In this document: positions 8,883 through 61,612 of the stretch, one piece after another
Numbering within the stretch: position 1 is the first letter of the stretch
Layout: the number at the start of each line of letters is the position of its first letter
NCBI RefSeq assembly: GCF_011045215.1
Contig: NZ_CP049201.1
DNA from: Escherichia coli
GTDB taxonomy: Bacteria; Pseudomonadota; Gammaproteobacteria; Enterobacterales; Enterobacteriaceae
Strand: one strand, 5' to 3'
Length of the DNA stretch: 64,000 nt
Position numbers and translations under genes: made by a program
The notes under the pieces: generated by a model
Database searches by the model: none
What the model saw: only the letters and a program-made list of their open reading frames with translations
Told to the model about the DNA's origin: nothing

Positions 8883-11800
8883 CTATCCCCAATCCAGCCC
8901 TTGTGGCGAACTTGAAAATCCCGCCTCACGCAGCAGCGTAAACATCGGCGTTTGCCGGACCGGTAGATCATTCACTTCTGTTAGCGTAAAGCGCAGCCGT
9001 GGTTCGCGACGCAGTGCGGTAGTCAGCGCGTGGAAAACCTCTGGGGCGAGTAATTCCTCTTTTTCCTGCCAGACCAGCATTTTTTTGCCACCTTGCGCCA
9101 GATAGAGTAACAATTTGCCGCCAGAAACGACCACCAGCGCACCCGCCCGACGCGTTGGTACCAGCGTTGCCGGATGTGCAGGCCAGGGCAGAAGATTTCC
9201 CCACACATTAGCCGGATCGTTGGCGGAGAGCGCCACTGGTGTATAGTGGCGCGTTTGCGCGGCTTGTGTCGCCAGGTCGCGCAAGCGGTCAATAGTCAGA
9301 CGTTCAGCGAATTGCGCGCCACCCAGACCTTCTACAAAACGACCTCGCATAATTCGCCCGGAGTCTTCCATACTTCGACAAAGCGTTTGCATCGATGGAA
9401 ACCCGCCAGGGATATTTTCGGCTATCACCGCCTGACGACTGATGATGCCGTAGCGGTCGAGCATATTTTCCGCCAGCGCCAGCATCCTTTCGGTATCGTT
9501 TAGTGGCTCCACCTGCAATAACGACCAGCGTCCAGCCAGATTTGGTGTGTTGTAAGATACCCGCGGCGAGACGGGTTGTGCATAGACAGGACGCCCACGA
9601 CGAGCCCGGTGACTGCGGCGAGTTGAGGTGCGTGCGTTGGAACTGCTGCGGGTGAGGGCGCGTAACGGTGCCCAAATATCGCTGGTGATGACGCCTTGCC
9701 AGACCAGCGCCCATAACGCCTCTTGCAGTGCCGAGGGATCAACCGATTCGCCGATTTTGTCGCGTATCCGTTGGCTGATTTGTTGTGCAAACCAGGCTCC
9801 TCCGTCAGCCAGAACAGCGACTATCGCTTGTTGCAGCGCCGAACGATTCGCCTGATCCGCTTCGGCGGGAGTGAACGATTCTGCAGCATATTCCTGTAGA
9901 TGCAGTGCCACCAGGCCGTCATCTTCACCCAGTTTTTTTTGCCCCGACCAGATAACCGCACCGGTTGCCAGTAATTCATCGAGCATTTCTGGCGAATAGT
10001 CGCGTACGCGGGCAGGCAGGATCTGGCTTTCCCAGAGTGAGGCGGGTAAGCCGACTCCGGCAAGCTGTTCGATTACCCGCATCACGCCATCTACGCCCTC
10101 ATAAACGCCTGGCGATGTTGAGGCAAAGAGCGCCGGGCTACCATCGGTGGCGGGTAATACGCCCTGACGTTCCAGCAGCAATCGCGCATAGGTCGTGGCT
10201 GCAACGGGACGCGTCGCTTCTCTGGCGGCTTGCAGCGAGCGCAAACGCAGACGACGAAATACTTCATCGCTCACCCAGATGTCTTGTTGCAGATTCATCA
10301 CCAGACCCTGTTCGCGCAGTTGCTGAAGCTGCTCTTCGACAATGGCAATACCGAGACTAAACTCATGAGCCAGTTGTTCAGCCGTGACCAGAGCATGAGC
10401 CCGGAGATAGCGCAGAAAGAGGTCGCGAAGCGGGTAACTGACTCTATGCAAATAAATCTCTGGCAGAGACTCTGGTAGTTGTACGCCGAGGGCATCGCGC
10501 AGCCTGGCGGCATCATCCATACAGGCAAGACGCTCCTGTCCGCTAATCATCGCCGGGAAGATTCGTTTTACTGTAAGAAGATTTTCCAGATACGACGCAA
10601 TCTCTTCACTGCTGCCTGTATGCCGTTGCGCCAGGTCTTCAACGGTCATTGGCCCCAGTTCGCGCAGCAGGTCGAACAATCCTTCTTCACCTTTCGCTCT
10701 TCTGCCAGGAGCCAGTCGTTGCAACTCTTCTTCCACCTGGCGAATGACCTGCGGGTCGAGTAATTCCCCGGATCGACCTGTCCGAGTAGATTGCGCAGTA
10801 ACTCGCTGTCCAGCGACAGTACGGATGCCCGGCGCTCTGCCAGCGGGGCGTCGCTCTGGTACATAAATTCCGCGACATAGCCGAACAATAAACTTGTGGC
10901 GAAAGGCGAGGGCGTAGTAGTCGTTACATCGGATATTTGAATTTCGCCACCGTTCAGGCGACGCATCAAACGTTCCAGTGCGGGAAGATCATAAACATCT
11001 TGCAGACATTCGCGTAGGGTTTCGAGAATGACCGGAAAATCCGGATATCCCTGAGCGATTTCCAGCAACTGACTGGCGCGCAGCCGTTGTTGCCAGAGCG
11101 GGGTGCGATGGCCCGGCGTGCGGCCCGGCATTAATAACGCCCGCGCGGCGCATTCGCGAAAACGGGCGGCGAAAAGTGCTGAGCTGCCTACCGCCTCGCG
11201 GACAATTTGCAGCAACTTTTCTGGTTCAAACAAAAAAATCGCGGCGTCGGGCAATTTACCATCAGTGTCAGGAATGCGCGCAACAATGCCGTCATCACTG
11301 GCGACCACAGACGCGTCAGCGCCCCATAGCGCATGTATTCGCCCGGCAATCGCCAGCGCCCAGGGTTCATGCACCCGTCTTCCATAGGGAGAGTGCAAAA
11401 TAATACGCCAGTCGCCAATTTCATCACGGCACCGTTCGAGGACCAGATGACGACTCCCCGGAACGATGCCCGTCGCGTTGCGCTGCTCGTCAATCAACCC
11501 CTGAATATTGGCGATCGTATTTTCTTCAGCCAGCCACGGGGGAATAGTCCCGGAAAAGAACGCGCCATCCGCCAGTAAATGAAGAAAATCGCCGATCATC
11601 TCGCCTAATTCAGCCGGACGTCCGTTACCTTCACCACGCCAGAAGGGGAGCCGGGCAGAACGACCCGGAGCAGGAGTCACAATCACCTGATCGCGGGTGA
11701 TTTGCTGTATCCGCCATGAGGTAGCGCCGAGAGTGATAATGTCGTTCACCCGCGACTCATATACCATCTCCTCATCCAGTTCACCCACCCGCCGCGAACC

Positions 11801-28255: not shown

Positions 28256-28290
28256 ACAAAAAAAAAGCCGCTAACGAAAAGTTAGCGGCT
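28256..28290 (-). terminator. rho-independent terminator after dtpA
   Basis: AGCCGCTAAC-GAAAA-GTTAGCGGCT with A9 on plus strand (U-run on minus-strand transcript). Confidence 0.75.
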
Positions 28291-33442: not shown

Positions 33443-35851
<2,409 letters not shown>

Positions 35852-41254: not shown

Positions 41255-44050
<2,796 letters not shown>

Positions 44051-45157: not shown

Positions 45158-45748
45158 ATGATGGATAACATGCAGACTGAAGCACAACCGACACGGACCC
45201 GGATCCTCAATGCTGCCAGAGAGATTTTTTCAGAAAATGGATTTCACAGTGCCTCGATGAAAGCCATCTGTAAATCTTGCGCCATTAGTCCCGGGACGCT
45301 CTATCACCATTTCATCTCCAAAGAAGCCTTGATTCAGGCGATTATCTTACAGGACCAGGAGAGGGCGCTGGCCCGTTTCCGGGAACCGATTGAAGGGATT
45401 CATTTTGTTGACTATATGGTCGAGTCTATTGTCTCTCTCACCCATGAAGCCTTTGGGCAACGGGCGCTGGTGGTCGAAATTATGGCGGAAGGGATGCGTA
45501 ACCCACAGGTCGCCGCCATGCTTAAAAATAAGCATATGACGATCACTGAATTTGTTGCTCAGCGGATGCGTGATGCCCAGCAAAAAGGCGAGATAAGCCC
45601 AGACATCAACACGGCAATGACTTCACGTTTACTGCTGGATCTGACCTACGGTGTACTGGCCGATATCGAAGCGGAAGACCTGGCGCGTGAAGCGTCGTTT
45701 GCTCAGGGATTACGCGCGATGATTGGCGGTATCTTAACCGCATCCTGA
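45158..45748 (+). CDS. uidR: TetR-family repressor of the glucuronide operon (UidR/GusR)
   Basis: 196-aa ORF matching UidR. Confidence 0.94.
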   Translation: MMDNMQTEAQPTRTRILNAAREIFSENGFHSASMKAICKSCAISPGTLYHHFISKEALIQAIILQDQERALARFREPIEGIHFVDYMVESIVSLTHEAFGQRALVVEIMAEGMRNPQVAAMLKNKHMTITEFVAQRMRDAQQKGEISPDINTAMTSRLLLDLTYGVLADIEAEDLAREASFAQGLRAMIGGILTAS

Positions 45749-46086
45749 TCCTCTCATTTCGCGGGCTGGTGATAACTGTGCCCGCGTTTCATACTTTAAT
45801 TTCCCTGTACAAAATACAATCTCCCCGGGATCGGAGAATTCCCCCCCCCAAAATATTCACCGTAGCCATATGTCATGAGAGTTTATCGTTCTCAAGATGC
45901 TCGAACGAACGTTCGATTGCTTATTTTATGGCTTCTGTCAACGCTGTTTTAAAGATTAATGCGATCTATATCACGCTGTGGGTATTGCAGTTTTTGGTTT
46001 TTTGATCGCGGTGTCAGTTCTTTTTATTTCCATTTCTCTTCCATGGGTTTCTCACAGATAACTGTGTGCAACACAGAATTGGTTAA

Positions 46087-49319
<3,233 letters not shown>

Positions 49320-57844: not shown

Positions 57845-59146
57845 TCAAGCAGAGGTAAATTGCGGGATGTTATGCCATAACGGCCAGCTAAACGAGAAGC
57901 GGGCACCACCCAGTTCGCTGGTGTCACAATTAACCGTACCGCCCATTGCCAGTGCTATAGAGTGGACAATTGCCAGCCCCAGCCCGCAGCCGCCGGTTGA
58001 GCGATCCCGGCTGGGATCGAGGCGAACAAAAGGTTCAAAGATATGTTCGCGGTTTTCTGGGGCAATCCCTGGGCCATCATCCTCAACAATTAATGTCGCT
58101 CTATTCCCCGACAGTAGCAGGCTGGTTTCAACCGTTGAATGGCAGTAGCGCAGGGCGTTATTGAGCAAATTATCCAGCACACGCTCCATTAAGCGCATAT
58201 CCAACGCCGCATAATGGCCTTGCGCGAGCGTTTTTATCCGTACCGTTTTATCGGGCGTTACTGCCTGAATGTCTGCCAGATGCGTTGACAGCCACAACGG
58301 CAGGTCTGGTTCGCTAAGATGAAGCTCGTTTTGTGGGCGATCGAGTCGGGCATAAGTCAGCAGCTCTTCAATTAAAGCTTCAAGTTGACTGATATCACGA
58401 TTCAACGCCTGGGATTCGGCGGCGCTCAGGTTATCGCTCATCTCCAGTCGATAACGCAGGCGCACTAACGGTGTTCGCAGTTCGTGTGCAATACCGTCAA
58501 TAAGCTGTTTTTTGCTGGCTATCAAGGCGTTGATATTGTCCGCCATCTGGTTAAATGCGACGCCAAGGCGTTCAAAGCTCGAACCCTCATCAAAGTGGAT
58601 ACGTTCATTGAGATGCCCATCGCCAAATCGTTGCGCCGCAGCTTCCAGTTTTAACATATCCTGCCAGTGCGGACGCATCCAGATAAACACCGGAAAGGCG
58701 AGGGAAATGGCAATAAAAGCGATCAGGGCGATATCCAGCAATCGCATCTGATGGAGGTAATAAAGATAAGGAACAGGACCAACTGCCAGCACGTAGTGGC
58801 TGCGCGGGATACGTTGCAAAAACGTGTACTGATCGTCCAGGGCGACAATTTCGCCGCCACGCAGTCGGTGCATGGAAATATCATCAAGATGGTATTTACT
58901 CAGTGGCTCGACACGCAGATCGAAAGAGAGATTTAAATCCATCTCTTTCAGCGTCTTACCCCAGTCGTGTGGGGGGATCTCACGCAATTCGCTGCGCATC
59001 AGATACAGCGAACTGTTCATCAAATCATCCAGCGACTGTTTGCCCGCGCGTTCGGCGGTAAATTTGTACACCAGCCCAACCAGCAGAGACATCACAAGGA
59101 AGCAGACAAACAATAACAGGTAAAACTGGATAAACAATTTTTTCAT
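57845..59146 (-). CDS. rstB: sensor histidine kinase RstB
   Basis: 433-aa frame from ATG at 59146 (MKKLFIQFYLLLFVCFLVMSLL), HAMP/HisKA/HATPase. Confidence 0.95.
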   Translation of the reverse strand: MKKLFIQFYLLLFVCFLVMSLLVGLVYKFTAERAGKQSLDDLMNSSLYLMRSELREIPPHDWGKTLKEMDLNLSFDLRVEPLSKYHLDDISMHRLRGGEIVALDDQYTFLQRIPRSHYVLAVGPVPYLYYLHQMRLLDIALIAFIAISLAFPVFIWMRPHWQDMLKLEAAAQRFGDGHLNERIHFDEGSSFERLGVAFNQMADNINALIASKKQLIDGIAHELRTPLVRLRYRLEMSDNLSAAESQALNRDISQLEALIEELLTYARLDRPQNELHLSEPDLPLWLSTHLADIQAVTPDKTVRIKTLAQGHYAALDMRLMERVLDNLLNNALRYCHSTVETSLLLSGNRATLIVEDDGPGIAPENREHIFEPFVRLDPSRDRSTGGCGLGLAIVHSIALAMGGTVNCDTSELGGARFSFSWPLWHNIPQFTSA

Positions 59147-59176
59147 TGGCATCGCCCGCAACAGAATACTATTCGT

Positions 59177-59205
59177 ATTAATTCACGACTGTGGAGCAAT
59201 GTAAA
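59177..59205 (-). promoter_or_regulatory. candidate sigma70 promoter for rstB (TTTACA-N17-ATTAAT)
   Basis: Minus strand -35 TTTACA (59205-59200), 17-nt spacer, -10 ATTAAT (59182-59177), about 30 nt upstream of rstB ATG; prediction only. Confidence 0.3.
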
Positions 59206-59324
59206 CCGCCAACTGGATAAGGCCTTGTTTGGAAGATAATGTCCGGAACAGACGGATGTATCCCCGGCGTATTCATATTCAGTAAATTCAATTTTCCACC
59301 GGGGCTTGTTTATTATGCTAAGGT

Positions 59325-60668
59325 TTAATTTAACGTGACGCTTTGTTGTTCTTTAGTCTCTCTATCCTTAAGAAGACGGGCTGATATTACACCGGACATC
59401 ATTGAACCATTCACATTAAGCGCTGTTCTTGCCATATCAACGATCGGCTCTATGGCAATAAAAATACCCACTAATGCGACAGGGAAATTAAGTGTTGAAA
59501 GGACAATCAGCGCCGCGAATGTCCCACCACCACCTACGCCTGCTACCCCTATTGAGCCAAGCGCGATGGCAGGTAAAAGAGTAGCGAGGAATTGCAATGA
59601 GAAGGGATCGATACCCATTGTTGGAGCAATTATCGCCACCATCACGGCAGGATAAATCCCAGCGCAGCCATTTTGTCCCATGTTGGAACCAAAAGACGCT
59701 GCAATATTAGCAATCGTATTTGGAACCCCCAATTTTTCCAATGCAGAAATAGCCAGAGGAATTGAAGCCGCACTACTGCGAGAAACAAACGCAAAGGTAA
59801 GTACTTGCCAGACGGTCTTGTAATAGTTAACGGGGTTTTTACCTATTAACAGCAAAATGCCCGAGTGAACAATAAACATCACAAAAACGGCCAGATAACA
59901 GGCGACGATGAACCCGAGCAAATTGGTAAACTGTGAAAGCTGATACGTTGAGAAGACTTTCGCCATTAGTGCCATTACCCCATAAGGCGTCAGCGCAATG
60001 ACAATACGGACCATTTTCATTACCCATATTTGAATCGCGTTGATCCCCGCGCTCAATTTTTCGCCCTCTGCTGGTGCATCTTTCTTTACTTTTAACAGCG
60101 CAATACCAGCAAGAATTGTAAAGATGACGATGCCAATAACCGAAACACTTCTTGCCCCGGTCAGATCAAGGAAGAGGTTGGTTGGGATCAATGACGTAAT
60201 GAGTCGCGGTAAAGATACCGCAGCTGTTTTCGAGACGTCATCGCTGGTTAAAGAGGATTGCATATGACCAAAGGCGCTGGCATCAAGGCCAATTGCACTG
60301 GCAATAGCCAGGCCAACTAAACCTGCAATCATGACTAAACACAACATACAGGCAACAATAGTTAAAGACATCTTGCCAATACCAGCGCTATTTTCGAGCT
60401 TATTAATCGCTGAAAGAATAGAAATGAATATGAGTGGAACGGCAACAAGTTTTAATAAATTAACATAACCGTTACCAGCAATATTATACCATTCGATAAC
60501 GGTTTCACTGTTTGTCTCAGGAATGAAATGCAGGGAGATACCAATGATAGCCCCCAGGAAAATCGCGATAAAAACACTTTTGGAAAGGGATTCGCTCTTT
60601 TGATCCGTTTTGAAAATCCCCCATGAGCAGATCAAAAAAAGCACAATATATGTGAAAGTTGTAACCAT
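59325..60668 (-). CDS. DAACS-family (sodium:dicarboxylate symporter superfamily) transporter, YdjN/TcyP-like; absent from this position in K-12
   Basis: 447-aa polytopic ORF, ATG at 60668 with AGAGG upstream; shares motifs with E. coli YdjN/TcyP as recalled (W(Y/F)NI(A/V)GNGYV, LTFAF(V/T)SRSSAASIPL, FG(S/A)xxGQNGCAG, GVAGVGGG(G/A)TFAALIV); substrate not inferable. Confidence 0.85.
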   Translation of the reverse strand: MVTTFTYIVLFLICSWGIFKTDQKSESLSKSVFIAIFLGAIIGISLHFIPETNSETVIEWYNIAGNGYVNLLKLVAVPLIFISILSAINKLENSAGIGKMSLTIVACMLCLVMIAGLVGLAIASAIGLDASAFGHMQSSLTSDDVSKTAAVSLPRLITSLIPTNLFLDLTGARSVSVIGIVIFTILAGIALLKVKKDAPAEGEKLSAGINAIQIWVMKMVRIVIALTPYGVMALMAKVFSTYQLSQFTNLLGFIVACYLAVFVMFIVHSGILLLIGKNPVNYYKTVWQVLTFAFVSRSSAASIPLAISALEKLGVPNTIANIAASFGSNMGQNGCAGIYPAVMVAIIAPTMGIDPFSLQFLATLLPAIALGSIGVAGVGGGGTFAALIVLSTLNFPVALVGIFIAIEPIVDMARTALNVNGSMMSGVISARLLKDRETKEQQSVTLN

Positions 60669-60722
60669 TTTTTAAGCCTCTTGCCTCATTCAGCACCTGA
60701 AATGCCGGAAAGAGTTTGTTGT

Positions 60723-60747
60723 AAAAAATCTGCGCCATAAGACGCAG
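60723..60747 (-). terminator. hairpin plus U-run between rstA and the inserted transporter gene (rstA terminator or leader attenuator)
   Basis: Minus strand CUGCGUC-UUAU-GGCGCAG followed by AUUUUUU; a TATAAT hexamer (60763-60758) lies just upstream. Confidence 0.45.
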
Positions 60748-60880
60748 GGACGAGGCGATTATAGAGAAATTTTTTCTCATATTCACATCAAATGTAGGGG
60801 GGTTGGAATTTGAATAAGCTCTTATTAATTGAATTCGTTAATTGTTCTCTTTTTCAGATGAACAAATATTAGTCATCTGA

Positions 60881-61612
60881 TTATTTATTGTCACTATCCC
60901 ATGCATGAGGCGCAAAAAGATAGCCTTTGTTACGCACGGTTTTAATGCGATAAGGTTCTGCGGCGTTATCGAGCAGTTTTTTTCTTAACCGCGAAATAGC
61001 CACGTCCACGCTACGATCCAGTCCGTCATAACTGACGCCGCGTAAATTTTTCAGCAATGCATCGCGGTCCATGATTTGCCCGGCATGGGTAGCTAATTCC
61101 CACAATAATTCGAAATCAGCTGTTGAGAGCGAGATTTCAGTGTTAGCCAGGGTGACTACGCGGTTGATAGGATCGATGGTCAACGTGCCGAAATGCAGGG
61201 CTTTGTAGGGAGTCAGAGACGTTTCCTGAAGACCTTTGGTCAGTGTGGCTTGCTCATTCTGACGCAAATGCAAACGTAAACGCGCTAGCAAAACAGCAGG
61301 GGGCGTCGTTTTGAGAATATAGTCGCAGGCACCCATTTCCAGTGCCAGGATGTGGTTCATATCGCTATCGAGAGAGGTTAGAAGAACAATCGGTCCAGAC
61401 CACTTTGCGCGTAAATCACGACAAATGGTCATGCCGTCCTTGCCTGGTAGCATGATGTCGAGTAACACCAAATCCGGATTTTCTCGCAAAATGGTTTCTT
61501 CGGCATGGTCGCCGCGCGGCTCTACGGTAACCTGCATATCATGTTTTGCCAGGTACGCGGCAATCAGTGAACCGACTTCCGCATCATCTTCCACAAATAC
61601 GATAGTGTTCAT
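60881..61612 (-). CDS. rstA: OmpR-family response regulator RstA (C-terminus differs from K-12 as recalled)
   Basis: Frame from ATG at 61612 (MNTIVFVEDDAEVGSLIAAYL), receiver plus winged-helix domains; ends ...APHAWDSDNK. Confidence 0.92.
   Translation of the reverse strand: MNTIVFVEDDAEVGSLIAAYLAKHDMQVTVEPRGDHAEETILRENPDLVLLDIMLPGKDGMTICRDLRAKWSGPIVLLTSLDSDMNHILALEMGACDYILKTTPPAVLLARLRLHLRQNEQATLTKGLQETSLTPYKALHFGTLTIDPINRVVTLANTEISLSTADFELLWELATHAGQIMDRDALLKNLRGVSYDGLDRSVDVAISRLRKKLLDNAAEPYRIKTVRNKGYLFAPHAWDSDNK

Follow-up and report, generated by a model that had tools for sequence, protein, structure and literature searches.

The stretch of DNA analyzed here, which we call the window, consists of 64,000 nucleotides from Escherichia coli. 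It is an ordinary part of the core chromosome, located close to the replication terminus, and its genes are arranged as rsx-add-malXY-malI-hdhA-uidR-uidABC-ydgA-manA-fumAC-tus-rstBA. Our subject is a homopolymer of cytosines in the intergenic region between uidR and uidA. Of 5,426 complete E. coli genomes, 5,419 have this intergenic region, and its identity to the window ranges from 92 to 99.6%. The sequence around the tract is CTCCCCGGGATCGGAGAATTCCCCCCCCCAAAATATTC (plus strand, AATCTCCCCGGGATCGGAGAATTCCCCCCCCCAAAATATTCACC), and the tract begins 93 bp past the uidR stop codon. A preliminary description of this DNA had placed nine consecutive C between the uidR stop and the promoter/operator region of uidA. 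The sequence confirms the nine C, and the RefSeq annotation of matching loci identifies the flanking genes as uidR and uidA. The features of the region are listed in Table 1.

Table 1. Features of the uidR-uidA region, in window coordinates. Alignment columns refer to the alignment of the window with 16 strains (17 sequences) described in the text.
Feature	Position	Strand	Remarks
uidR (gusR) CDS	45158-45748	+	196-aa TetR-family repressor; stop codon 45746-45748; orthologous RefSeq loci annotated uidR
TC-rich variable simple repeat	45749-45759	+	directly 3' of the uidR stop; 11/16 alignment columns vary for 45749-45760
GC-rich hairpin CGCGGGC ... GCCCGCG, then T-rich TTTCATACTTTAATTT	45760-45786	+	conserved
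Hypervariable spacer with the tract	45788-45850		29/63 columns (46%) vary in 17 sequences; several haplotypes in the alignment
Short terminator-like hairpin	45821-45838	-	from pattern scan; 7 pairs, tail ATTGTATTTT; in this haplotype only
CCCGGG hexamer	45824-45829		native; also in PapM-32-1, VE-V11-M, XDL and Nissle 1917
GAATTC hexamer	45836-45841		native; same position in K-12 EMG2 and most aligned strains
C9 homopolymer (the tract)	45841-45849	+	reads G9 on the opposite strand; spans -297 to -289, counted from the uidA ATG
A4 run adjoining C9	45850-45853	+	C/A boundary varies by strain: C6A5, C7A5, C7A4, C6A3
Conserved uidA control region (operators, promoter)	45851-46137	+	28/287 columns vary
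Inverted repeat TCGAAC-GAAC-GTTCGA	45901-45916		includes perfect palindrome CGAACGTTCG; candidate GusR operator O1
Dyads CTGTGTGCAACACAG (46062-46076) and ATTGGTTAACTAAT (46078-46091)	46062-46091		nearly invariant in the alignment; presumably candidate O2, UxuR or CRP elements
uidA (gusA), beta-glucuronidase	46138-47949	+	603 aa, intact; orthologous RefSeq loci so annotated; ATG at 46138

Away from uidR and uidA, the window has about 1.75 kb of extra DNA (59146-60897) between rstB and rstA, two genes that are normally 3 bp apart in one operon. The insert carries on its minus strand an ORF (59325-60668) for a 447-aa sodium:dicarboxylate symporter of the SDF family (Pfam PF00375, E=8e-96), and it is found at this site in just one of the 5,426 complete E. 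coli chromosomes, that of an environmental isolate from the Netherlands (NZ_OZ197100.1). The same 1,657 bp (99.3%) are present on plasmids; in the one plasmid examined, p50579417_2, they are flanked by two IS1 copies, and the left end of the plasmid homology is also the left end of the chromosomal insert. Across the 24 kb from 34000 to 58000, identity to the window does not exceed 98.9% in any of the 5,426 complete E. coli genomes. The divergence from the best match is mosaic, with 21-51 SNPs/kb at 48-51 kb (the 3' end of uidB, and uidC) and 0-3 SNPs/kb at 52-59 kb, a pattern that suggests patches of recombination rather than a uniformly distant lineage. A 19-bp segment of malX (42744-42762), which is inside a long uninterrupted minus-strand ORF (41255-43210) in the window, is absent in OkiPb01695, whose malX is annotated as frameshifted. 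The comparison with OkiPb01695 also reveals an 18-bp indel of in-frame length in the rsxC region (33479-33496), and short internal repeats near this indel produce secondary BLAST alignments at 88% identity.

The uidR-uidA intergenic region was aligned for the window and 16 strains. The TC-rich repeat next to the uidR stop differs in both length and sequence by strain (CCTCTCATTTC vs TTCTCTCTCTCTTTCC vs TTCTCTCTCTTTTTCGG) and represents a second simple-sequence length polymorphism of this intergenic region. The GC-rich hairpin that follows varies in only two of its 27 columns (7%) in the 17 sequences and is present in the MFE fold of the window and of K-12; it is probably the intrinsic terminator of uidR. 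In the uidA control region, 6-15% of the columns are variable. The tract itself is at the 3' end of the part of the intergenic region that is under the least constraint.

No other G/C run in the 64 kb is as long as the tract with its nine bases; runs of length 5, 6, 7, 8 and 9 number 31, 5, 1, 0 and 1, respectively. Such a run is not significant relative to base composition; two (overlapping) C8 matches were observed, dinucleotide shuffles gave 1.08 +/- 1.28, and a count of two was reached in 30 of the 100 shuffles. In a published analysis of K-12, G.C runs of 8 bp are already classed as outliers (PMC8510543). The window has two further long homopolymers, an A9 (28258-28266) and a T8 (9933-9940).

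The preliminary description also considered the tract to be prone to changes in length, and the strains support this view, because the length differs between strains that have identical flanks. It is far from invariant in the 17 aligned sequences. Nine C are present in the window and in PapM-32-1, eight in VE-V11-M, seven in O121 RM8352, 06_3044 and OkiPb01678, and six in K-12 EMG2, UC4315, 504211, RM13322 and LH85-a. The remaining strains have interrupted forms, namely CTCCCT in O55:H7, NEBExpress (a B strain) and LH50-c, CCTCCCT in Z1322, and CCACCT in Nissle 1917 and XDL. The strains with C6 to C9 and those with interrupted forms are all annotated with full-length uidR and uidA. The same point is made by K99B (C9) and VE-V11-M (C8), which are identical across the whole intergenic region save for one C. 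Within haplotypes, the tract could be used as a small typing marker. A search for the outgroup state, made as a degenerate-pattern scan of genome contigs, returned only chance matches in unrelated phyla and none in Escherichia.

Alleles were then counted in the 5,426 complete E. coli genomes by means of queries below 100 nt in length, for which one difference is enough to push the identity below 99%. With the exact 46-nt left and 36-nt right flanks of the window, there are 15 genomes with C7, 263 with C8, two with C9 and none with C10. Therefore, the window holds a rare allele that is one C longer than C8, the modal length of its haplotype. With K-12-type flanks, the corresponding numbers are five genomes with C5, 1482 with C6 and two with C7, i.e., 0.47% are off-mode. 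The tract is thus about 13 times less variable on the C6 haplotype of K-12 than on the C8 haplotype, where 6.1% of the genomes (17/280) are off-mode (odds ratio 13.7, Fisher p=1.9e-9), with the qualifications that the genomes are not independent in phylogenetic terms (of the five C7 genomes listed, three belong to O169:H41 or a close relative), that homopolymer sequencing errors scale with run length likewise and that some of the public +/-1 calls may be errors.

The tract therefore has the properties of a slippage-prone mononucleotide repeat: it is an uninterrupted run of nine C, its length differs by whole units on identical flanks, and its variability rises with run length, as far as non-independent genomes and errors that scale alike allow the comparison. 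Mutation-accumulation data for E. coli indicate that the indel rate is an exponential function of homopolymer length (PMC8510543), and the difference between C6 and C8 matches this published dependence. The length-dependent off-mode calls are what either slippage or homopolymer miscalling would predict, and the earlier statement that the tract is liable to both holds up in this respect.

Since errors would also be expected to produce length-dependent off-mode calls, the ninth C could be a sequencing or assembly miscall in a strain that is truly C8. Homopolymer length is a classic error class of several sequencing platforms, and C9 is very rare (two of the 280 genomes on the haplotype, as compared to 263 with C8). 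However, a comparison of the window with its best relative over ~40 kb reveals few indels, the single-base ones are all intergenic and no gene is frameshifted. Because there are no coding homopolymer frameshifts over this distance, the window assembly is not generally error-prone. Furthermore, C9 is present in two independent assemblies; PapM-32-1 shares the sub-haplotype of the window and K99B is on a different one. As these two public C9 genomes have different sub-haplotypes, C9 seems to be recurrent, having arisen, or been called, at least twice. The C7 alleles in related O169:H41 genomes also show that heritable length variants are real at this site. We give a miscall a minor, if appreciable, chance. 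The reading of the site is the same whether the ninth C is real or miscalled, and the site provides a handy check of homopolymer accuracy in E. coli assemblies.

The two hexamers beside the tract, CCCGGG and GAATTC, had been thought to look like cloning sites. Two 6-bp restriction sites within 18 bp, with an adjoining homopolymer, could be viewed as remnants of engineering, e.g., a polylinker with homopolymer tailing. This suspicion is wrong, because both hexamers occur natively, at the same places, in aligned wild strains, including isolates from humans, baboons, cattle and poultry. The region is also collinear with 5,410 of the 5,426 natural genomes, and no vector sequence is present. An engineered junction was therefore rejected, and the probability that we would assign to it is negligible. 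The GAATTC is the center of a 10/12 quasi-palindrome, GGAGAATTCCCC (45833-45844), that is lost in B2-type strains, which have GAATCC. One general lesson is that a homopolymer with restriction-site hexamers beside it is not necessarily a sign of engineering.

Several readings of the spacer at the level of transcript or protein were considered. An ORF of 78 aa with a GTG start (45769-46005) spans the tract. It was rejected as a coding sequence; 46% of the spacer columns vary, and the changes in tract length, which are not multiples of three, exclude coding. The terminator-like hairpin on the minus strand was also considered. Together with its T-rich tail, it might terminate an unannotated minus-strand transcript or small RNA that starts in the uidA control region and includes the G9, and a weak promoter-like site is present on that strand at 45952-45923. 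However, promoter-like sites are at chance level (one found vs 0.9 expected), the haplotypes do not share a conserved hairpin (alifold, -2.9 kcal/mol) and the folding energy equals that of shuffled sequences (z=0.16 and -0.01). A cmscan at E<=1 over 45600-46300 gave no match to a known RNA family in Rfam, and no consensus RNA structure was found on either strand across 11 distinct haplotypes (-3.8 and -2.9 kcal/mol). With a pattern that exists only in the window's haplotype, the minus-strand terminator or small RNA was set aside, and we consider it highly improbable.

A different possibility is that the C-rich, G-poor spacer is a rut-like loading site for Rho, which would supplement the uidR terminator and keep read-through from reaching uidA, a longer C-run making it stronger. 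Poly(C) is the strongest known activator of Rho. In the 78 nt after the terminator, the window has a C/G ratio of 2.78, and the other haplotypes all have ratios of 1.5-2.1 despite heavy sequence turnover. A local C/G maximum of 3.1 is centered on the tract; at most ~0.3% of the plus-strand 78-nt segments rank as high. The C-rich, G-poor character is kept in all haplotypes, and this could hint at a weak constraint. However, the 64 kb hold some 47 bubbles of C>G or G>C that are just as strong, so the signal is not specific. Likewise, the published Term-seq tables are without a 3' end in the uidR-uidA spacer, under conditions in which these genes are poorly expressed; the only 3' end that the supplements list for the region is at the 5' end of uidR. 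We regard a Rho loading site as improbable.

PMC9881133, which cites Little et al. 2018, describes a pair of operators for GusR, the high-affinity O1 and a second one, O2, both located upstream of the gusA promoter. The gus control region in that study is the same locus as the one described here. Its O1 deletion was made with primers DE6279/DE6280, which join ...GCCCGCGTTTCATACTTTA to GCGATCTATATCACGCTGTGGG and remove a 163-bp segment (PMC9881133 Table S3); expression then becomes unresponsive to inducer, i.e., GusR control is removed (PMC9881133). In window coordinates, the deletion corresponds to 45799-45960, or -339 to -178, and so the position of the tract is inside the deleted 'O1 site' segment. 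The strain used in that study, BL21, has the interrupted CTCCCT at this position and not a C-run, as read from the B strain NEBExpress in our alignment.

The inverted repeat TCGAAC-GAAC-GTTCGA, with its AACGTT palindrome, is 52 bp downstream of the tract. Because it is well conserved and is the only strong dyad in the deleted block, it is likely that this repeat, and not the tract, is O1. In contrast to such an operator, the tract is not a dyad and is not conserved. It was accordingly rejected as an operator for GusR/UidR (TetR family): it has no dyad, and the quasi-palindrome that overlaps it is the one lost in B2-type strains. The preliminary description had suggested that the tract, between the uidR stop and the uidA promoter/operator region, could affect expression of the gus operon. 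The position between uidR and uidA stands; the location in the hypervariable spacer upstream of the conserved control region, the distance to the nearest dyad and the 289-297 bp that separate the tract from the uidA ATG speak against an effect on expression.

As for the promoter, tiled dCas9 guides from -191 to -1 all lower GusA activity to some degree, most strongly at -105, -94 and -2/-1, and guides on both strands between -159 and -38 all repress GusA moderately (PMC9881133 Table S1). The tiling thus ends at -191, and the tract is at -297 to -289. This pattern of repression implies that promoter function is at least ~100 bp downstream of the tract. A pattern scan found no plus-strand sigma-70-like promoter site near the tract. 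The last 177 bp before uidA (45961-46137) show a degree of conservation that is unusual in intergenic DNA; across phylogroups, 11 of their 177 columns vary. Together with the dCas9 repression, this conservation suggests that the control region is extended or that the 5' leader is long. Taken together, the sequence evidence makes an effect of the tract on gus expression, or any other regulatory role, unlikely.

Another regulatory reading is that of a contingency element. Poly-G/C tracts of contingency loci in Neisseria, Haemophilus, Campylobacter and Helicobacter are phase-variable, and the tract described here resembles them in being a G/C homopolymer of ~9 bp upstream of an operon, with a length that varies between strains. 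By analogy, a change in its length might shift the spacing, or the geometry of the DNA, on the upstream side of O1, and this would tune the repression by GusR or the strength of the promoter. Its location within the published O1-deletion block, its rank as the longest G/C run in the window and its length variation between closely related strains would agree with this idea. However, conservation in the intergenic region is lowest where the tract is located. The tract is not inside a coding ORF, and pattern scan and dyad search place it outside of any core promoter spacer (i.e., between -35 and -10) or defined regulator-binding site. It is also not maintained, because the sampled O55:H7, B and B2-type strains, as well as others, have the non-slippery CTCCCT, CCTCCCT or CCACCT in its place. 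Finally, one length dominates per haplotype (94% C8, 99.5% C6), unlike in true contingency loci. To our knowledge, no ON/OFF phenotype is known for the uidR-uidA tract. A phase-variable locus was therefore rejected, and we think it very improbable that the tract acts in this manner.

A more restricted version is that the tract is tunable only in the A/B1-type lineages that have the pure C-run, in which its length would determine either how strongly a Rho-dependent insulator acts between uidR and gus or the geometry upstream of O1. We believe there is very little chance that this is so. If it were true, gut E. coli would have heritable and reversible differences in basal beta-glucuronidase expression; any effect of tract length on gus expression would bear on the variation in gut-bacterial beta-glucuronidase, which is relevant to drug reactivation.

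We consider it most likely instead that this polymorphic tract, which is more variable where it is longer and is surrounded by poorly conserved DNA, is a native mononucleotide repeat in a non-conserved spacer, that its length changes by replication slippage and that these changes are neutral or nearly so; neutrality is suggested by the position and the low conservation. One finding that counts against this explanation is that the tract is inside the 163-bp block whose deletion removed GusR control, and thus it is not formally excluded from the neighborhood of O1; another is the C-rich, G-poor character that all haplotypes retain. The history of the tract might be as follows. An ancestral C/T-rich stretch in a dispensable spacer would have been interrupted in several lineages, and in some lineages it would have become a pure C6 and then lengthened to C7 and C8. 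Misalignment of strands within the run would add or remove one C, at a rate that climbs steeply with run length, and the window would represent a rare further +1 step to C9, the current extreme. Such changes would be tolerated as neutral or nearly neutral, without any designed effect on gus expression, because the spacer holds no essential element and nothing essential depends on its spacing. The biological importance of the tract is small, and its interest is as an example of a simple-sequence run that arises and lengthens in a dispensable spacer, from interrupted forms to C6, C7, C8 and C9.

The closest known systems are the indel hotspots of E. coli described by the Foster laboratory, which include a 9-bp A.T run in the glnS promoter and 8-bp G.C runs in leuP/Q/V/T (PMC8510543). 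Like these hotspots, the tract is an uninterrupted homopolymer of 8-9 bp that undergoes +/-1 changes and whose variability increases with run length. Unlike them, it is known from population polymorphism among public genomes rather than from a measured mutation rate, and it is in a non-conserved spacer rather than in a promoter or a tRNA gene. In conclusion, the C9 tract between uidR and uidA is an ordinary case of an already known phenomenon in a locus that was sequenced long ago.
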